Assembly (NCBI RefSeq): GCF_000299365.1
Contig: NC_018655.1
Coordinates: 720,001-752,000 of the forward strand
Direction: 5' to 3'
DNA length: 32,000 nt
From: Candidatus Nitrosopumilus koreensis AR1
GTDB lineage: Archaea > Thermoproteota > Nitrososphaeria > Nitrososphaerales > Nitrosopumilaceae
Position numbers and translations under genes: made by a program
Part shown: piece by piece, positions 15,690-30,347 of the stretch
Layout: each line of letters starts with the position of its first letter
Position numbering within the stretch: position 1 is the stretch's first letter
Notes under the pieces: generated by a model
Told to the model about the DNA's origin: nothing
The model's input: only the letters and a program-made list of their open reading frames with translations
Database searches by the model: none

Positions 15690-15737
15690 GACTAAAACGC
15701 ATCATCGATTGCCCTCTATTAAACCATGTGAGATGTC

Positions 15738-15766
15738 GTTAACCACTAAAAAAATACTGGTTAACC
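15738..15766. promoter_or_regulatory. Inverted repeat GTTAACC-N14-GGTTAACC (site C), 49-77 nt upstream of the rpl3 start
   Basis: Read directly: tcGTTAACCactaaaaaaatactGGTTAACCaatt. Same arms as the sites at 23461 and 28245. Confidence 0.6.
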
Positions 15767-15781
15767 AATTATGCCTGAAAA

Positions 15782-15892
15782 TTAAGGATTTAGAATTTCA
15801 TTTGCCATGTTCCAAATTGTTATTCCACCAATAATTATTCCAACAACTCCTACTCCGATTGCTAATAGCAAAAAATTTTTCCTTTCTGTCAT
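15782..15892 (-). CDS. Possible 36-aa single-TM micro-protein
   Basis: Hand translation: MTERKNFLLLAIGVGVVGIIIGGITIWNMANEILNP. The ATG lies 2 nt after the stop of the upstream gene (TAGTCATG). Confidence 0.35.
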   Translation of the reverse strand: MTERKNFLLLAIGVGVVGIIIGGITIWNMANEILNP

Positions 15893-21291: not shown

Positions 21292-22431
21292 TTAGCAAAA
21301 TTTCACGTATGCCTTCTTGAATATTTCAAGTGCTTTTTCGATATCATTGTCTTTTAGCCATGCTGTAACTGAGATTCTCAGCCTGGCCTGATTTTTTGGT
21401 ACTGTTGGATATCTGATTGGCTGGGCAAACACTCCATTCTCAAGTAAGAATTTTCCAAAGTCCATTGCTGATTTTTCATTTCCTATGATGATTGGGATTA
21501 TCTGGGATTTTGAATTTATATCAAAACCAATCTCTCTGAGTCCATTTGATAATTTTTTTGTATTTTCTTCTAGCTTCTTTTTTTGTTTTTCTCTATCTGA
21601 TTCTAATCTTTTTAATGAATGTTCTACAAGAAATGCAGGAAGTGCTGACGTATAGATAAATGATTTTGATTTGTTTATGCACAAATCAACGACATTGTTT
21701 TTTGCTGCAACGTATCCTCCAAAGGATCCTAATCCTTTGCTTAGACTACTGATGTACAAATCAATTTTTTTTCCAACTTTGAAATGATTTGGTGTCCCTT
21801 TGCCATCTTTACCAACTACAAAATCTCCATGTGCATCATCTACAATTGTTATTGCATTGGTTTTTTCCGCAATTTCAGTAATTTGTTTAAGATTAGACAT
21901 GTCTCCATCCATACTAAATATTCCTTCAGTTATCACAAACTTGTTTTTTCCTTTTTGTTTTAGTTTGGTTTGCAAATCTTTCATATCATTATGCTTGTAA
22001 ATTGAAATTTTGGCATCAGTTAGTTTACATGACTCAATTATACTTGCATGATTTAATTCATCACTGAGAATCAAGTCTCCTTTTTTTGCTATTGCAGAAA
22101 TTGACCCTAGGTTTGCCATGTATCCTGTGGGATATATCAAACTGTTTTGTTGTGATTTGTGTTTTGCAAGTACTTTTTCTAATTTTCTGTACGATTCATC
22201 ATTTCCTGAAACTAGCCTGGAGCTTGATTGGAGCTGATTGATTTTGATCCTTGTTGTTGGAATTCCTAGATAGTCATTTGAGCATAAATTGAGAAGTTTT
22301 TTTCCATTAATTGTAATGTGTGCACCGTGTACTTTTCCGTAATTCAGTTTTCGATAAAGGTTATTTTGTTTTATTGCATGTAACTCTGTATCTACAAAGT
22401 CAAGTTTATGCCTGGAGGCCAATTTTTTCAA
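21292..22431 (-). CDS. bioF: 8-amino-7-oxononanoate synthase
   Basis: 379 aa. PLP-dependent alpha-oxoamine synthase pattern (DDAHG..., SLSKGLGSFGGY). Confidence 0.85.
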   Translation of the reverse strand: MKKLASRHKLDFVDTELHAIKQNNLYRKLNYGKVHGAHITINGKKLLNLCSNDYLGIPTTRIKINQLQSSSRLVSGNDESYRKLEKVLAKHKSQQNSLIYPTGYMANLGSISAIAKKGDLILSDELNHASIIESCKLTDAKISIYKHNDMKDLQTKLKQKGKNKFVITEGIFSMDGDMSNLKQITEIAEKTNAITIVDDAHGDFVVGKDGKGTPNHFKVGKKIDLYISSLSKGLGSFGGYVAAKNNVVDLCINKSKSFIYTSALPAFLVEHSLKRLESDREKQKKKLEENTKKLSNGLREIGFDINSKSQIIPIIIGNEKSAMDFGKFLLENGVFAQPIRYPTVPKNQARLRISVTAWLKDNDIEKALEIFKKAYVKFC

Positions 22432-23383
22432 TCATTTTACGGTCTTTTTCAGCCTCGTTTCCATCCATTGTGAGATAACCTGCAGTAATGATTCCATTTG
22501 CACCACTTTGAAGTAATTCTTCGCCAGAATCATCAAGATTTGTCTCTCTTCCTCCAGAAATTTTGATTACTGATTCAGGTAATAGGAATCTGATCACAGA
22601 AAACATTCTGACAATTTCAGAATTTGGTAAATTTGTTTGTAGTTCTAATGGAGTTCCTGGAACTGGAACTAGTATGTTAATTGTAACTTCTTCTGGAAAC
22701 AGTCTTGCAATCTCTAGTGTTAACTCCAACCTCTGCTCTCTTGTTTCACCTAATCCAATAATTCCACCAGTGCACAACTCTAAGCCTGCATCTCTTGCAA
22801 TATCCAATGTCTTTAACCTGTCTTCATATGTGTGGGTAGTGCAAATTTCTGGAAATTTTGATTTTGCAGTTTCTAAATTGTGATTATATCTTTTTACTTT
22901 GAGTTCTTTTAGTTTTACAGCTTGTTCTGGTGTGAGAAATCCCAAACTACACTCTACACTAATCCCAACTTTGTCATTAATCTCTGTAATTATCTTGCAA
23001 ACTTTTTCAAAATCTGTCTTTGATGGTTCACGCCATGCTGCAACAAGACAATATGATTCTGCACCTTCTTCTTTTGCTTTTTTAGCTTTGGATACCACTT
23101 CTTCGGGTGATGGTAATTGGTATGTTTCTATTCCTGTGTCAAAAAATGCAGATTGTCCACAAAATGTACAGTCTTCACTGCATGCGTTTTTTTTAATATT
23201 GTTTAATTGTTCGACGTCTACTTTTTCACCATTAAAGTCCCTGGTAATTTCATTTGCACATCTTGCCAGATCTTTTAGATTCTCTTCTGGAATGTTTAGT
23301 AGTTTTTCAGCATCTTCTGCAGTAATGTGATTTCCAGAAAACACCTTCTCTTGGCATTCTTTTATGAAATTTAGGGTATCCAT
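22406..23383 (-). CDS. bioB: Biotin synthase (radical SAM)
   Basis: 325 aa. CSEDCTFCGQS CxxxCxxC cluster motif and YNHNLET. Confidence 0.9.
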   Translation of the reverse strand: MDTLNFIKECQEKVFSGNHITAEDAEKLLNIPEENLKDLARCANEITRDFNGEKVDVEQLNNIKKNACSEDCTFCGQSAFFDTGIETYQLPSPEEVVSKAKKAKEEGAESYCLVAAWREPSKTDFEKVCKIITEINDKVGISVECSLGFLTPEQAVKLKELKVKRYNHNLETAKSKFPEICTTHTYEDRLKTLDIARDAGLELCTGGIIGLGETREQRLELTLEIARLFPEEVTINILVPVPGTPLELQTNLPNSEIVRMFSVIRFLLPESVIKISGGRETNLDDSGEELLQSGANGIITAGYLTMDGNEAEKDRKMIEKIGLQA

Positions 23384-23460
23384 GATTTGATGTGAAATTT
23401 TCCATTTATAACAATGAAGCTAGTGAATTTCTTCCCTTTATTGCTATAATTTTGAAAATA

Positions 23461-23490
23461 GGTTAACCTCCATACCATAGGGGGGTTAAC
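23461..23490. promoter_or_regulatory. BirA-operator-like inverted repeat GGTTAACC-N15-GGTTAAC (site A), 78-107 nt upstream of bioB
   Basis: Read directly: GGTTAACCtccataccataggggGGTTAACagt. Confidence 0.65.
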
Positions 23491-23587
23491 AGTGGTTTTA
23501 AAAATATTATTGGAAGTTCAATACCACGTGGATTCAACCACCGTTTTGGGTATGAAAATGGGCGCATTTAGGCACACATACCAAATT

Positions 23588-25147
23588 CTATTTAGCGAGT
23601 ATTATTTTTGAGTTATTGATTTTTTTGTTAATCAAGTTCTCTGCAACATCAATCATATGATTAAATTCATCTTCATTTTCTTGATGTTTGGCAAATTCAA
23701 CTAAACTTGACAATTTGAAACAATTCTTTATTTCGTCCATAGGAATTTTAGTATTATCAAGATAAGACAAAAGTTCTTCATGGGTAATTTCTTTGTTCAA
23801 GTTTAATTCATAGCTCAAAAATATCCTAAGTGCCCTACTAACTTTACTATATGCATCTTTGAATTGTTTTTCTTTGAAATTATTTCTTGCTTCTTTTATT
23901 AAATTAGTGGATTCTAAAACATGATCAAATTTTGTAGATGTTATTTTGACAATTGGTTTTGGCAATATTTTCTTGGTAGTTTTTAATTTTTTATACAAAA
24001 CATATGCAACAACTACAATTGGAATGAATACTAAAAGAGAATAAAGATATGAATAATCTTCAGAAGGTTTTTCCAGATGAATTTTTTCTAGATTATCATT
24101 TTCAAAATCTGCAGTAATTGTTGCAGTTTGGATTTCTTGATCTTGATAATTCAGTGAGATCGTAGTCCTGTTTTTATCAGAAAGAAATTCCATATCCTGT
24201 TCTACAAATCCATTTTGGGTTAATTGATTTTCATATTCTTGAAAAGTAGGATTGTCTCGCAGTATAGACAGTAATTGTTCTCTTTCTTCTTGGGTTTGTT
24301 TTTGTATTTCAGTCATGGTTCCATTTACCATATTTCCCTTCACCTTAGCCCATTTTCCCTGTCCATTTTCATAGTTGACTTCAAAACTCCCTGTAGAAGC
24401 AGAACTAGGATCTAGGCTCCCAGTAGTCACATTATACCCTTGTTGCAGGAGTTGTTGATGGGTTTTCTGAAAATCTTCATTTGAAGCAAGTTGGCTTTCA
24501 AATTCTTTTTTTAGTTGGGTTTCTTCTTGTAACTGTTCTTGAATTTCCTGTTTTAATGCACTGCTGTCTTGAGCCATCTGATTATTTTGTAGTCTTTGTT
24601 GAGGATCTTGCATCAGAGGAGATTGATTCATCAATTCATCTAATTTTTGTTGCAGAGATTGTTGTGATTGAGATTGTGTGTTCTGATTAGATGAGTCTTG
24701 TTGTGAAGATCTTTGCATTTTATTTTGTATATTATTTTTTTGAGACTCATCGGATACAAAATGAATAATTATTGGTTCAAAAGATACATGCATGTCGTTT
24801 CCATCGTTGTAGTTAAAGTTGAGAGTTACAGTCAAAGTAGTAGGTGAATCACTAGTTCCAAAATTCAACGAACCGTTTTGGTGTCCATCATCAATTATGA
24901 ATGTAGATGATTGTGTGTTTGAGCTTGAAAATTGCATGTTTCCTTGTAGTATTTGCTGTGAAATTGTATATTGTAGCATGCCAGATATTTGATGTCCATA
25001 GTCATTTTGAATCTCCAAAGGGATTACTGCATTCTCTCCAACTAAAAAATAATATTCAGATTGATCAACAGACATTACAAGTTCTTCAGCAAATGTTAAT
25101 GGAAGCGAACCCAGTAGCAGTACAACAAAAAAGATTTGTTTTTTCAT
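23588..25147 (-). CDS. BatD-like membrane protein: signal peptide, beta-rich ectodomain, Q/N-rich linker, one TM helix, helical cytoplasmic tail
   Basis: 519 aa. Signal peptide MKKQIFFVVLLLGSLPLTFA, TM LLVFIPIVVVAYVLY. The C-terminal tail resembles the BatD / MoxR-operon accessory-protein tail. 4-nt ATGA overlap with the VWA gene. Confidence 0.6.
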   Translation of the reverse strand: MKKQIFFVVLLLGSLPLTFAEELVMSVDQSEYYFLVGENAVIPLEIQNDYGHQISGMLQYTISQQILQGNMQFSSSNTQSSTFIIDDGHQNGSLNFGTSDSPTTLTVTLNFNYNDGNDMHVSFEPIIIHFVSDESQKNNIQNKMQRSSQQDSSNQNTQSQSQQSLQQKLDELMNQSPLMQDPQQRLQNNQMAQDSSALKQEIQEQLQEETQLKKEFESQLASNEDFQKTHQQLLQQGYNVTTGSLDPSSASTGSFEVNYENGQGKWAKVKGNMVNGTMTEIQKQTQEEREQLLSILRDNPTFQEYENQLTQNGFVEQDMEFLSDKNRTTISLNYQDQEIQTATITADFENDNLEKIHLEKPSEDYSYLYSLLVFIPIVVVAYVLYKKLKTTKKILPKPIVKITSTKFDHVLESTNLIKEARNNFKEKQFKDAYSKVSRALRIFLSYELNLNKEITHEELLSYLDNTKIPMDEIKNCFKLSSLVEFAKHQENEDEFNHMIDVAENLINKKINNSKIILAK

Positions 25148-26094
25148 TGAATGATCCTCCCTTTTCCATATCTTATGTAAATTTGAGCAAAGAATAATCC
25201 AAGTGATGCTACAAAGAACCAGTCTTTTATGCTAGTGTCTTCTTTTTCTCGTTTGATGTCTTTGCTAATATTTTTGTAAATATTTTCTAGAGTCTGAGAA
25301 TCAATTGATTTAAAATATTTGCCACCAGTATTTTCTGCAATTGCCTTTAGTGTAGCCTCATCTAGTTCTGCATATTGAGCCCTACCAAAGAAATCATATC
25401 CCAGAACCACCTTCTCTTCTGAGCCTAATCCAATCGTATAGACCTGGATATCATTTGATTTGGCAAAAGCGATTGCCTCCATAGGGGTAATCACGCCTGC
25501 GTTGTTGACACCATCACTAAGAAGGATTACCACTTTTTGTTTATTTGGAACAGATGTTGCCATATCGATACCAAGACTAAGCCCATCGCCGATTGCAGTC
25601 TTGCCCTCTCGTGGTAAGATGTCTTGAAGTTTTTCTATGACTTTGTCTTTGTATGGACTAAGATAAGCTGCAGTAGTAGCTCCAGTTTCAAAGGTTACAA
25701 TACCTGCATTATCTTTTGGTTGAAGGGATTGTAATAAAATCTCAGCAGAACTTTTTGCCGACTCTAATCTGTTTGGAGGATAATCGTTTGCCTGCATACT
25801 TCCAGAAACATCAATTACCAAAACAACATTGACTCCTTCTTTTGTTTGCTCTAATGGTACATGAGGATCAGCAAATCCAATTATCATCAATGCGATAACT
25901 GCAATGGATATGTAAAATAATAGAGAATCACGTTTAGTTTTTTTCTTGTTACCTATAGCAGATTTGATGTATGATAAATTACTAAATTGTATTGCAGCTT
26001 TTTTCTTTTTTGTTAGAATTTTATTGTATAAATAAAATAATCCAGGAATTACTAAAAGAAAAATTAGAATGTAAGAATTGTCAAATCCTGCCAT
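25144..26094 (-). CDS. VWA-domain membrane protein (BatA-like)
   Basis: 316 aa. Two N-terminal TM helices and one C-terminal TM helix. MIDAS motif VIDVSGSM. Confidence 0.85.
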   Translation of the reverse strand: MAGFDNSYILIFLLVIPGLFYLYNKILTKKKKAAIQFSNLSYIKSAIGNKKKTKRDSLLFYISIAVIALMIIGFADPHVPLEQTKEGVNVVLVIDVSGSMQANDYPPNRLESAKSSAEILLQSLQPKDNAGIVTFETGATTAAYLSPYKDKVIEKLQDILPREGKTAIGDGLSLGIDMATSVPNKQKVVILLSDGVNNAGVITPMEAIAFAKSNDIQVYTIGLGSEEKVVLGYDFFGRAQYAELDEATLKAIAENTGGKYFKSIDSQTLENIYKNISKDIKREKEDTSIKDWFFVASLGLFFAQIYIRYGKGRIIQ

Positions 26095-26968
26095 TTTTTC
26101 TTACCTTCTTTTGAAGAATTTTTTTTAGAGGGATTGAATAGTTTTGATCAGTTAATAGTGAAATTGTATCAACTTTGTTTTTCATCATATTTGTTAGAAA
26201 TCTTGAATCATTTTCAGCAACCAACCTACTGTACGAGTTTCTAAAATCTTCATCAGAAGTATCAACTAAGAGTTGTTCTCCTGATTCCTCATCTTCTAAT
26301 TCTATCAGCCCAACGTCTGGAATTTCTTTCTCTCTGGGATCAATAATTCTCAAGGCTATTACATCATGACGTTTACGCAATATTTTGAGAGGTTTTAGAT
26401 AGTCACTGTTATCAATAAAATCAGAAATTACAAAAACAATACTTTTTCGTTTTATTGTCTGAGATACTCGCTCTAGGGGGGTTTTTAGGCTAGTTTTTGC
26501 CGAATTAGGCGTAAAATTGGAGATAACATCCAATAATTTCAGGACATGTTTTCTACCCTTTCTTACAGGAATGAATTTCTCAACATTATCTGTAACTAAA
26601 AAAACACCTACACCGTCGTTATTTCTTAATGCTGCAAACATCAGACTGGCAATAATCTCAAGAGATTTTTCCTTCTTGGAGATGTTTGTTCCAAAACTGC
26701 CAGAACCAGACACATCTATAACAAAATAGACTTGAAGATCCCTTTCTTCAATAAACTCTTTGATGTAAGGGTGATTAAATCTTGCAGTTACTTTCCAATC
26801 AATTGCTCGTATGTCATCTCCTGCTCTGTAATCTCTAATTTCAGAAAATTCAATTCCTTGTCCTTTAAAAACAGAATTGTAGTTACCTGTGATTATTCCA
26901 TCAACTAGTTGTTTTGTTTTAATATCTAACTTTTTGATTTTTTTTAAGATTGTTTTTGTTTGAGACAT
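26081..26968 (-). CDS. DUF58 protein (MoxR-associated, VWA-like fold)
   Basis: 295 aa. GxGIEFSEIRDYRAGDDIRAIDWKVTAR signature of DUF58. Confidence 0.85.
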   Translation of the reverse strand: MSQTKTILKKIKKLDIKTKQLVDGIITGNYNSVFKGQGIEFSEIRDYRAGDDIRAIDWKVTARFNHPYIKEFIEERDLQVYFVIDVSGSGSFGTNISKKEKSLEIIASLMFAALRNNDGVGVFLVTDNVEKFIPVRKGRKHVLKLLDVISNFTPNSAKTSLKTPLERVSQTIKRKSIVFVISDFIDNSDYLKPLKILRKRHDVIALRIIDPREKEIPDVGLIELEDEESGEQLLVDTSDEDFRNSYSRLVAENDSRFLTNMMKNKVDTISLLTDQNYSIPLKKILQKKVRKNGRI

Positions 26969-26989
26969 GTTATCACCAAACTTACGTTG

Positions 26990-27988
26990 TTAAGGAATCT
27001 TGATTTTTTCTAGTATTTTTTGTATCACGTTATCAGATGTTATTTCTTCAGATTCTGCCTCATAGGTCAAAATTATTCTGTGTCGTAAAACATCATATGT
27101 AACATCTTGAACATCTTCAGGAATTACATATCCTCGTCCATGTAACAAGGCATTTGCTTTTGCAGAAATTGTTAACCAGATTGAGGCTCTAGGAGAAGCT
27201 CCATATTCTATTTGATCAGTTAAAGGAAGATCATACTTTTCAGGAAATCTTGTAGCATCAACAATTTGTGAAATATATTTTCGAATTTTCTCATCAGCAT
27301 AAATTTTTGGTACAAATTGCTGCATTTGCAATAATTCTTCGGCAGACATAATTTTTGCAGCATTATATGAAATTCCTTCAGTAAATCTTTGGATTATTTC
27401 AGATTCTTGTTCTATGTTTGGATATGTGATTAAAAGCTTGAACATGAAACGGTCCACTTGTGCCTCAGGTAATTTGTAAGTGCCTTCGGATTCTACTGGA
27501 TTTTGTGTAGCCATTACAAAAAAAGGCTGTTCTAATGGATATGTTTCGCCTTGAATGCTAACTTGATGTTCTTGCATTGCTTCAAGTAATGCCGATTGTA
27601 CCTTTGGAGGGGCACGATTTATCTCATCTGCAAGTATAAAATTTGAGAATATTGGTCCCTTTATTGTCTTAAAAGATGTGGATTCATGATCATAAATTTT
27701 AGTTCCTGTAATGTCTGCAGGTAAAAGATCTGGGGTGAATTGCAATCTAACGAATTTAGAATCAATGCAGTCAGACAAAGTTTGGACAAGTAATGTTTTG
27801 GCCAAACCAGGAACCCCCTCAAGCAAAACATGACCTTTTGATAGTAATGCAATCACTAGTTTTCTAATAATTTGATCTTGACCTACAATTATTTTTGAGA
27901 TTTCCTTTTGGAGGTTTTTAAGAGGTATGGAGAAATCTTCAGCTTGATTAGTTAATGTGTTAATTTCTTGACTCATGGTTTCCACCAA
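26990..27988 (-). CDS. MoxR-family AAA+ ATPase
   Basis: 332 aa. Walker A GVPGLAKT, Walker B ILADEINRAPPKVQSALLEAMQE, ...ATQNPVE... Confidence 0.92.
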   Translation of the reverse strand: MVETMSQEINTLTNQAEDFSIPLKNLQKEISKIIVGQDQIIRKLVIALLSKGHVLLEGVPGLAKTLLVQTLSDCIDSKFVRLQFTPDLLPADITGTKIYDHESTSFKTIKGPIFSNFILADEINRAPPKVQSALLEAMQEHQVSIQGETYPLEQPFFVMATQNPVESEGTYKLPEAQVDRFMFKLLITYPNIEQESEIIQRFTEGISYNAAKIMSAEELLQMQQFVPKIYADEKIRKYISQIVDATRFPEKYDLPLTDQIEYGASPRASIWLTISAKANALLHGRGYVIPEDVQDVTYDVLRHRIILTYEAESEEITSDNVIQKILEKIKIP

Positions 27989-28244
27989 ATATGCTAGTTT
28001 TCAGGAAAAATATTTAAAAATTACTGAACAAAATTAAAAAATTTTAAAAATAGTTATTCACAAATCAATAGTCATTTTACAAACAAAGACTCAAGAAAGA
28101 TCATGATATTTAGATTCATGACTCTTGGTTCACAGACCAATAGTCGCTTTACGGGTATTGGCTTAATGTTGGCTGTTTTATGTTAAATTAAAACTATGTA
28201 AGATTAAGGGAATGTTTCAACATGAATCATAACAATAATGGAAA

Positions 28245-28274
28245 GGTTAACCCTGATTGGTAATGGGGGTTAAC
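28245..28274. promoter_or_regulatory. BirA-operator-like inverted repeat GGTTAACC-N15-GGTTAAC (site B), ending 2 nt before the bioA stop codon
   Basis: Read directly: GGTTAACCctgattggtaatgggGGTTAACagt. Confidence 0.6.
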
Positions 28275-28276
28275 AG

Positions 28277-29590
28277 TCAGATTACCTGTGATTTTGCGCC
28301 TTGTATTGTCTTAATGGTGCGTTTTAGGAGCATGTCTAGTTCTTTTTCAGATATTGCCAAAGGTGGAACAAGCATGACTATGTTACCTAAAGTACGAAGA
28401 TAGATTCCATTCTTTTTACCCTCTTCGTAGAATATCTTATTGATTGATTTTTTAGGATGAATTGGAGTTTTCTTCTTTCTATCTGTGACCAGTTCTATTC
28501 CCATTAACATTCCTTTATGTCTGATATCTCCCACAATATCAATTTCTGAAATCTCATTGTAGTACTTTTCAAATATTTTGGATGTCTTTTGAATTTTTTT
28601 GATCAGATTATTTTTTTGATACATTTTGATATTCTCATTTGCAACTGCTGCTGCAAGAGGGTTTCCAGTGTAGGTGTGTCCGTGAAAGAGATGTTTCCAA
28701 TCATTAAATTCTCCTGAAAATGAATCATATACTTTTTTGTTTGCAAGAGTTGCAGCCATTGTAAGATAACCCCCTGTTAACATTTTTCCATATGCCACAA
28801 TGTCGGGGATAGATTTTTGTTCTTCATATTGTGTCATCGATCCCAATCTTCCAAAACCAGTTGCAATTTCATCTAAGACAAACAACACATCATATTTTTT
28901 ACATAGTTGGCTAATTTTATTTTGAAAGCCTTTTGGATATATAATGACTCCTCCCGCTACTTGTGCACCGCTTTCCATTACAAATGCTGCAATGTTTTTA
29001 TTTTTTGAAAATTTATTTTCAATTTTTTCAAGACATTGATTTTGATAATCAGAAATTGTAACTCCTTTTGGTAATTTGTATTTTTTTGGAACTTGGAATT
29101 GTATTGTTTTGAATAGTTGTTTTTTGAATTTGCCAAAAAATTCTGGTACATATCCTACAGCCATTGCACCAAATGTATCTCCATGATATCCGTTTTCTAC
29201 TGTAGCAATCTCTGTTTTTTCAATTCCTTTATTTTTCCAATATTGTAGCGCAATTTTGATTGCAATTTCCATTGCTGAAGATCCATTGTCTGAAAAAAAT
29301 ACCTTGTGCATCCCAGGCGACATTTTTACAAGACTGTCTGCTAGTTTCTCTGCAGGCTCATTTGTGATGTTAAACATTGAAGAATGTTGTAGTTTTTTAC
29401 TCTGATTTGTGATTGCTTTGACTAGTTGAGGATTAGAATGGCCCCACACATTACACCACATCGAGGCTACAGCATCTATCATTTTATGGCCTTTTGAGTC
29501 AATTAACCACACTCCTTTGGCATTGGTAATTTTATCAAAAGTGCTCCATTCTTTCATCTGAGTGTTTGGGTGCCAAACAGAACTTTTCAA
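28277..29590 (-). CDS. bioA: Adenosylmethionine-8-amino-7-oxononanoate aminotransferase
   Basis: 437 aa. VWHPNTQ N-terminal motif, class-III aminotransferase pattern (DEIATGFGRLG). TTG start implied because the WHP motif precedes the first ATG. Confidence 0.88.
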   Translation of the reverse strand: MKSSVWHPNTQMKEWSTFDKITNAKGVWLIDSKGHKMIDAVASMWCNVWGHSNPQLVKAITNQSKKLQHSSMFNITNEPAEKLADSLVKMSPGMHKVFFSDNGSSAMEIAIKIALQYWKNKGIEKTEIATVENGYHGDTFGAMAVGYVPEFFGKFKKQLFKTIQFQVPKKYKLPKGVTISDYQNQCLEKIENKFSKNKNIAAFVMESGAQVAGGVIIYPKGFQNKISQLCKKYDVLFVLDEIATGFGRLGSMTQYEEQKSIPDIVAYGKMLTGGYLTMAATLANKKVYDSFSGEFNDWKHLFHGHTYTGNPLAAAVANENIKMYQKNNLIKKIQKTSKIFEKYYNEISEIDIVGDIRHKGMLMGIELVTDRKKKTPIHPKKSINKIFYEEGKKNGIYLRTLGNIVMLVPPLAISEKELDMLLKRTIKTIQGAKSQVI

Positions 29591-29660
29591 CAGATTTCAT
29601 ATAATTTCAGATCTTAATAATTAACCGATGAGTTAATCAATAGATTCTTCTAAAAATTAT

Positions 29661-30347
29661 TTGTTGAAATCCCTCTTTATTGCAGGAACTGATACTGATG
29701 TTGGAAAAACCTACATTACTGCAGGTCTTGCAGTTGCACTTCGTAAAATGAATGTGGATGTTGGTGTAATGAAACCTTTTGCAGCTGGCACTGCACAGAA
29801 AAAAGGCTACAAGTCTGAAGATGTTGAAATCTTATCTAATGCTGCTCAAACTTTTGATTCTGAAAATTTGGTAAACCCTCAATTCTTTCCAATCCCTGCA
29901 TCTCCATACACTGCTTGGAAAAATCTAAAAATAAAACCCAAAATTTCTACGGTATTATCTAGTTTCAAAAAACTATCAAAATTACATGACTTGATTCTTG
30001 TTGAGGGTATGGGGGGAATAATGACGCCCATTCTCAAAAACTATTACATCACAAATCTGATTAAAGAAATGAGTATTCCAACTGTAATTGTAACTAGAAG
30101 TAAAATTGGAACTGTAAACCACACTGTAATGACAACAGAGATGTGTAAAAAATATAAAATTCCAATCAAAGGAATAATAATTAATGATTTTGATACTGGC
30201 TATCCTGTTAAAGAGTTGACAAGAGACTTGCAAAATCTTACAGGAGTTAAAGTATTAGGTTCGATTCCTTTCATTAAAGACATGGGCGATAGTTCACTGA
30301 ATAATATTTTCAAAAAGAATATTGATTTGAAATCATTAGTAAAATGA
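29661..30347 (+). CDS. bioD: Dethiobiotin synthase
   Basis: 228 aa. P-loop GTDTDVGKT and LVEGMGG. TTG start. Confidence 0.88.
   Translation: MLKSLFIAGTDTDVGKTYITAGLAVALRKMNVDVGVMKPFAAGTAQKKGYKSEDVEILSNAAQTFDSENLVNPQFFPIPASPYTAWKNLKIKPKISTVLSSFKKLSKLHDLILVEGMGGIMTPILKNYYITNLIKEMSIPTVIVTRSKIGTVNHTVMTTEMCKKYKIPIKGIIINDFDTGYPVKELTRDLQNLTGVKVLGSIPFIKDMGDSSLNNIFKKNIDLKSLVK

Follow-up and report, generated by a model that had tools for sequence, protein, structure and literature searches.

The biotin locus of the archaeon Candidatus Nitrosopumilus koreensis AR1 contains the same inverted repeat of about 30 base pairs (bp) twice, once upstream of the biotin synthase gene bioB (site A) and once immediately after bioA (site B), on either side of four genes unrelated to biotin. 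The locus lies in a stretch of 32,000 nucleotides (nt) (contig NC_018655.1, positions 720,001 to 752,000), referred to here as the window; the BioB encoded in it matches that of N. koreensis AR1 at 100% identity. What binds this repeat, if anything, and why are there two copies? The reading preferred here, to which we assign a probability of roughly 60%, is that it is a cis-regulatory site at the bioB-bioF promoter, bound by a protein dimer that is most likely a biotin repressor/ligase of the BirA type, and that it was doubled by an insertion. Marine ammonia-oxidizing archaea are major B-vitamin producers, and such a site would give their vitamin regulation a concrete cis element open to test; to our knowledge, almost no transcription-factor sites are known in these organisms.

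On the forward strand, site A reads GGTTAACC tccataccatagggg GGTTAAC and site B GGTTAACC ctgattggtaatggg GGTTAAC, each followed by AGT; on the minus strand, which holds all of the relevant genes except bioD, each is acTGTTAACC-N15-GGTTAACC. Because GTTAAC is its own reverse complement, the pair of arms is an inverted and a direct repeat at once. An earlier description, made from the letters of the window without database searches (the sequence-only reading), had given the two sites identical arms and 15-nt spacers with 6 of 15 spacer positions equal, and had placed site A 78-107 nt upstream of the bioB ATG and site B 2 nt from the bioA stop codon; all of this holds. Its distance of 257 nt from site B to the start of the MoxR gene is right for a TTG at 27988, but becomes 269 nt for the likelier ATG at 27976. 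Its argument that the arms are too rare to recur by chance also stands: the window has three copies of GGTTAACC where 0.21 would be expected, and none of 100 shuffled sequences reached three. When up to three mismatches were allowed, the two-arm pattern matched only sites A and B in the window; the third copy of GGTTAACC belongs to a further site (site C), taken up below.

The repeat is conserved in relatives. The comparison set consisted of 80 metagenome loci with BioB 85-94% identical (L numbers are labels of fetched loci). In 63 of them, as in N. maritimus SCM1 and N. sediminis AR2, bioA is directly followed by bioB, with a junction of the form stop-c-TGTTAACC-N14/15-GGTTAACC-12 nt-TTATAAAT-~21 nt-ATG(bioB); past the right arm GGTTAACC, this reads tttccattattg, then TTATAAATGG, then about 21 bases to the bioB ATG. 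Counts upstream of bioB rest on the 78 loci with enough upstream sequence: GTTAAC-N16/17-GTTAAC is perfect in 67, has one mismatch in 4 and is absent from 7, so that the operator was found at bioB-bioF in 71 of 78. The spacing between the 7-mer arms is N14 (the commoner among relatives) in 53 of the perfect loci and N15, as in sites A and B, in 14. Among the 51 distinct adjacent-gene sequences (41 + 10), the GTTAAC hexamers are 100% invariant, while consensus identity is 0.63-0.73 in the spacer and 0.68-0.81 in the 3′ coding end of bioA. The operator is kept in orthologous intergenic regions across BioB identities of 85-100%, five named species among them. The sequence-only reading had taken the conserved arms and free spacer to indicate a protein-binding site, and had proposed comparing synteny and site conservation in related genomes; that comparison, made at the orthologous bioA-bioB junctions of the 63 loci, SCM1 and AR2, supports it. 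Judged from sequence comparison, conserved hexamers around a variable spacer are the signature of a selected protein-binding site. Related DNA amounting to about 0.86 Mb plus 0.19 Mb contained perfect sites only at bioB and at rpl3, in addition to the presumed relic at site B.

The region between bioA and bioB in one lineage (L030, L032, L047, and L057), in which the operator is absent, contains a small gene for a CheY-like receiver protein about 110-540 nt upstream of bioB. The operator is likewise absent in L012, L050, and L074.

The closest published counterpart is the BirA signal, TTGTAAACC-[N14/15]-GGTTTACAA, with a Geobacter variant TTGTtAACC (PMC545781); the BirA of B. subtilis must occupy both half-sites, as a dimer, and binds only with biotin and ATP (PMC4016012). 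The consensus of the 67 orthologous sites, aCTGTTAACC...GGTTAAC(C/A), agrees with the BirA half-site at 7 of 9 positions in its published form and at 8 of 9 in the Geobacter variant. The N14 or N15 between 9-mer half-sites is the same count as that between the 7-mer arms, and matches the N14/15 of BirA. The BirA-like architecture suggested in the sequence-only reading is therefore found in the half-site and in both spacings. Like bioO and other BirA sites, the repeat is an imperfect palindrome with the half-site TGT(T/A)AACC and 14 or 15 bp between its arms; it also lies in the promoter region of a biotin biosynthesis gene, with conserved arms and a free spacer. It differs from them in several respects: bioB-bioF alone of the bio genes has a site, and not bioA or bioD; it is upstream of an archaeal B recognition element (BRE) and TATA box, rather than over -35/-10 boxes; and an equivalent site is also found before a ribosomal-protein operon. 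A literature search found no published BirA operator from the Thaumarchaeota. Rodionov, Mironov, and Gelfand are said to have predicted BirA sites in some archaea in 2002; it is their consensus that PMC545781 quotes. The repeat is best described as a conserved BirA-type operator of bioB with a putative regulator.

In the ancestral layout, 1 nt separates the bioA stop codon from the site, and a further 12-13 nt separate the site from the bioB TATA box. A protein bound there would press on the BRE/TATA region of the internal bioB promoter, and would also block read-through coming from bioA. If the protein is BirA, binding would occur upon build-up of biotinyl-5′-AMP and would lower bioB-bioF expression. 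The bioB TATA box is so close to the ATG that the mRNA may be leaderless or nearly so. An activator, too, could act from just upstream of BRE/TATA, so that the regulation could have either sign.

The presence of two copies can be traced to an insertion. Homology to adjacent-gene loci passes through site B and the 12-nt linker beyond it and stops after TTAT at 28229, the match ending at exactly this base in 21 of 24 BLAST matches; the left junction, TTAT|GAT, is common to the window, L013, and N. sp. SW. The two copies of ATTGTTAT that bound the following segment, together with this stop in homology, identify the 4813 nt between them as an insert. The two operators also resemble those of different relatives. 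The spacer of site B equals that of a short-form adjacent-gene locus (L004) at 11 of 15 positions, while site A, in its spacer and in the 49 nt that come next, agrees with a longer promoter module of bioB seen also in N. piranensis D3C, L002, L011, L013, L027, L042, and L079; orthologues of site A, with related spacers, lie at -107 in N. piranensis D3C and in six urease-island contigs. Of the three explanations offered for site B in the sequence-only reading, synteny, the homology stop, and the 8-bp repeats bear out the third: site B is the operator of the ancestral bioA-bioB junction, which stayed in place when a segment was inserted. The order in the direction of transcription is now bioA, site B, MoxR, DUF58, the VWA/BatA protein, a 519-residue protein, site A, bioB, and a bioF-like gene. 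The 4.8-kb segment interrupts the old TATA box, at a junction prone to insertion and recombination. Its left end retains the original operator and half a TATA box, without a gene to control, and its right end provides a second operator, within the longer promoter module that now serves bioB. As the border repeat overlaps the promoter, bioB depended on the insert for a promoter, either newly brought or regenerated.

In all genomes with the long form of the operator, a conserved block (CTGCnTCC-ATTTT..CCCAAAA) is found 0-60 nt upstream of it (window 23491-23565; L013 1474-1507; also L079, L042, and L286); it has no tRNA or Rfam match. A stretch GGTGGyTGAATCCmCGTGG is common to AR1 and L013 alone. 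The block upstream of site A was considered as the terminus of an inserted element and rejected; by BLAST, it is shared with L013 alone.

Other genomes have different inserts at the same place. The bioA-bioB gap of N. piranensis is 15.6 kb, with a ParB-like gene, transporter genes, and a urease cluster; urease genes are found at this junction in six contigs (L296-L301), from the two BioB clusters closest to AR1 (95%). The N. sp. SW insert is 820 nt, flanked by a direct repeat of the whole operator-plus-stub of about 46 bp, and four metagenome loci have inserts of 0.3-1.2 kb. These varied inserts (MoxR, urease, small) mark the junction as a hot spot for strain-specific cargo, where a promoter can be cut in two by an insertion, with an operator left intact but without a gene. 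The arrangement resembles flexible genomic islands and the integrated elements of Thaumarchaeota (PMC6563490) in having one core-gene junction with different cargo per strain (0.3-1.2 kb, the 4.8-kb MoxR segment, the 15.6-kb urease island) and short direct repeats at its borders; unlike the integrated elements, the window insert has no integrase or transposase. An insert in L027 (9240-9790) apparently encodes a small protein, which looks helix-turn-helix-like by eye (IINRLKRLEEMNYLE).

The cargo in the window is a four-gene cassette with Pfam matches to AAA_3/AAA_lid_2 (MoxR), DUF58, and VWA plus BatA; the fourth protein (519 residues) is named BatD by UniRef. The cassette is 86-87% identical in DNA sequence to those in two other Nitrosopumilus contexts and 78% to that in a third. 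These three contexts are mutually unrelated, and none is near biotin genes; in all of them the cassette comes with a TATA box of its own and lacks the repeat. A protein search with MoxR gave 407 homologues, many of them thaumarchaeal, and the same four genes occur in a Methanosarcinales genome. As in known Bat/MoxR-VWA operons, the order is MoxR (AAA_3), DUF58, a VWA protein with a BatA N-terminal domain, and a BatD-named membrane protein; here, by contrast, it is a four-gene version carried as cargo, with NCBIfam scores far below the family cut-offs. The cassette is cargo with its own promoter, unrelated to biotin. Control of the MoxR operon by site B, another of the three earlier explanations, is disfavored: the cassette's own TATA box and the absence of the repeat in three other contexts argue against any such control having evolved.

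Table 1. Features of the biotin locus and of the related sites. Positions are those of the window unless another sequence is named.
Feature	Position	Strand	Remarks
Site C	15737..15766	-	GGTTAACC-N14 (A/T-rich)-GGTTAACg; on the minus strand, cGTTAACC-N14-GGTTAACC
Orthologues of site C	L284 20896; L286 17622; L288 19040; L291 19752; L296 19526		
bioF-like gene (BioF/Kbl family)	21292..22431	-	TIGR00858, 353 bits (cut-off 426, not reached); overlaps the end of bioB
bioB, biotin synthase	22406..23383	-	Radical_SAM and BATS; TIGR00433, 395 bits (cut-off 225); ATG at 23383
Proximal bioB TATA box, TTATAAAT	23404..23411	-	20 nt before the ATG; conserved in nearly all loci
Right 8-bp direct repeat, ATTGTTAT	23408..23415	-	Overlaps the bioB TATA box in present use
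49-nt spacer of the long promoter module	23412..23460	-	Contains a putative degenerate second TATA-like box, AATAAAGG, at 23435-23442
Inserted segment, 4813 nt	23416..28228	-	Between the two 8-bp repeats; missing from 63 of 80 related loci
Site A	about 23461..23491	-	Predicted binding site; bioB-serving operator of the long promoter module, TGTTAACC-N15-GGTTAACC, 78-108 nt upstream of the bioB ATG
Cassette of four genes, MoxR-DUF58-BatA(VWA)-BatD-like	23605..28035	-	Own promoter, TTTTTAAATA, about 35 nt before the ATG
Left 8-bp direct repeat, ATTGTTAT	28229..28236	-	Read directly
Stub of the ancestral bioB promoter, tttccattattgTTAT	28229..28244	-	12-nt linker and first half of the old TATA box TTATAAAT
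Site B	about 28245..28275	-	Ancestral bioA-bioB junction operator, TGTTAACC-N15-GGTTAACC; now separated from bioB
bioA	28277..29590	-	TIGR00508, 455 bits (cut-off 405); stop codon 28277-28279
bioD	29661..30347	+	Divergent from bioA, with 70 nt between them
Urease island of N. piranensis	CP010868.1:1120816-1136428; L290 11315-21314 and L286 1-10000		ParB-like gene at the bioA end

Several observations weigh against a BirA-type operator doubled by insertion. A search for birA, which as a repressor (group II) would encode an N-terminal winged helix-turn-helix, gave nothing in the window, in its 10-kb flanks, or in about 300 fetched loci, either by a motif regular expression or by tblastn with approximate E. 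coli and P. horikoshii ligase sequences. The divergent promoters of bioA and bioD have no operator in the 70-nt region that contains them, in the window or in relatives, which is unusual for a BirA regulon. Site C, before the rpl3 operon, is not predicted by a biotin repressor. Site A is off the ancestral position, 49 nt from the proximal TATA box, a distance at which a bound protein would not simply occlude the promoter, unless the promoter under control is that of the degenerate distal TATA-like box. Finally, site B and its 16-nt stub have 0 changes in about 30 constrained positions, while the third-codon identity of the adjacent bioA is only 0.54-0.63 to all relatives; with a perfect site beside a diverged gene, either the junction is young or the copy is still constrained.

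The bioD-bioA region (window 29591-29660; also L003, L005, L008, and others) has a strongly conserved core of its own, TTGATTAACtcatcGGTTAATTATTAAG. It includes ATTAAC and GTTAAT about 12 bp apart, which resemble the operator hexamer; these are probably two back-to-back TATA boxes.

Site C bears on the identity of the factor. It lies 49-77 nt upstream of rpl3, the first gene of a large ribosomal-protein operon, with 14 nt from the end of its proximal arm to the TATA box of rpl3, TTTAATAG (15716-15723). Compared with the bioB site, it has the same 7-mer arms, N14 spacing, and the same layout relative to the TATA box. It is kept in every relative covering the region, four named species among them, with a spacer that has a T-run in some strains and an A-run in others. 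About 17 nt before site C is the end of a 36-codon open reading frame (15782-15892, minus strand), which encodes a small hydrophobic protein and appears to be conserved in relatives.

Given the same site at rpl3, one must suppose an unusual regulon or a factor other than BirA. The latter possibility would keep the cis element as described and have it bound by a different transcription factor that co-regulates bioB-bioF and the large ribosomal-protein operon, for example a growth-linked activator upstream of BRE/TATA. It is suggested by the identity of the arms and N14 spacing of site C, by its matching place between a stop codon (about 17 nt away) and a TATA box (14 nt away), by its retention in all relatives covering the region, and by the lack of a site at the bioA and bioD promoters. 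Archaeal activators, moreover, usually bind where the site ends 12-14 nt upstream of the TATA box, as these sites do. Set against this, BirA operators share this half-site and the same pair of spacings, N14 and N15; 67 of 78 loci have the site together with a biotin gene; and no other candidate regulator is conserved beside the locus. A 133-residue protein encoded beside bioD was considered as such a regulator and rejected, being absent from the 80 metagenome loci and N. sediminis AR2; proteins of like size are found next to bioD in SCM1, N. piranensis, and N. sp. SW, and it has no Pfam or NCBIfam match. On balance, a factor other than BirA seems somewhat unlikely.

A broader proposal would leave the factor's identity aside: whatever binds GTTAACC-N14/15-GGTTAAC, BirA or other, might control both bioB-bioF and the rpl3 operon from the same promoter-proximal position. 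The odds of this are low. Carbon fixation in these autotrophs depends on biotin carboxylase, and biotin/carboxylase status would then be tied to ribosome synthesis; if the rpl3 site is bound by the same protein, cofactor supply would be linked to ribosome production, a link so far undescribed. The doubling of the site in the biotin locus is ordinary, and is explained by the insertion; the rpl3 site is the unexplained part, and the one most worth attention.

Site B itself is most likely a stranded relic. The copy after bioA has decayed or been lost in five other insert-bearing genomes (L011, L027, L047, N. piranensis, and N. sp. SW), and is therefore dispensable. It might nevertheless have kept a function, as a roadblock ending bioA transcripts, a decoy titrating the regulator, or a control site for the MoxR cassette. 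The match of site B and its stub to the consensus, beside neutral sites of bioA that have diverged to 0.54-0.63, would fit such a role, as would the lack of a T-run terminator after bioA and the retention in L013 of a copy with one arm mismatch. Apart from the losses in the five other genomes, however, the neighboring half TATA box has been destroyed; the cassette promoter is about 200 nt downstream, and is present without the site in three other contexts; and the position 2 nt after the bioA stop codon is simply the ancestral one. A retained function for site B is improbable, more so than a factor other than BirA.

It could also be asked whether the repeats are attachment (att) or recombination sites of an integrative element, instead of or besides being operators. 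The insert is flanked by direct repeats (8 bp, ATTGTTAT, in the window; the operator-plus-stub of about 46 bp in N. sp. SW), three genomes have the junction position in common, and different cargo is found at the same spot, with the N. piranensis island beginning with a ParB-like gene; according to a survey of thaumarchaeal integrated elements (PMC6563490), these use intergenic targets. Such sites would be expected to have identical core repeats and an encoded recombinase; the 8-bp repeat is present, but neither an integrase nor any other recombinase is encoded in the window insert. The spacers differ at 9 of 15 positions and vary between N14 and N15 in length, neither of which suits a crossover core. 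The site is also kept in 63 loci without any insert, and the same motif occurs at rpl3 without one; nor does the main text of the survey mention biotin, urease, or MoxR (PMC6563490). An att role is accordingly very unlikely.

That the inverted repeat acts as an RNA hairpin, either a terminator or a 3′-end stabilizer of the upstream gene, is hardly credible: a stop codon shortly before each site and a possible 7-8-bp stem would allow it, but the predicted folds are weak (-9 kcal/mol, z-scores -0.5 and -1.75, with 13-15-nt loops), no T-run follows the repeat, site A is 97 nt past the upstream stop codon and hence not close, there is no Rfam family match, and the invariant part is a self-complementary hexamer, so that covariation gives no test. 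Folding, Rfam, and tRNA searches found no terminator, structured-RNA family, or tRNA fragment at or near the sites.

Two minor observations concern the sequences compared. Assembly GCA_000328925.1 is mixed, with two bio loci (L001 and L289, on contigs AJVJ01000025 and AJVJ01000056), one identical to that of N. koreensis AR1 and the other to that of N. sediminis AR2. Among the matches listed, six large viral contigs from IMG/VR, unrelated to Nitrosopumilus (L111, L113, L121, L180, L182, and L196; 0.3 Mb, 61-67% G+C) have several copies of a longer palindrome, GTTAACCTTAAnnnnnnnTTAAGGTTAAC, which fits the same motif pattern.

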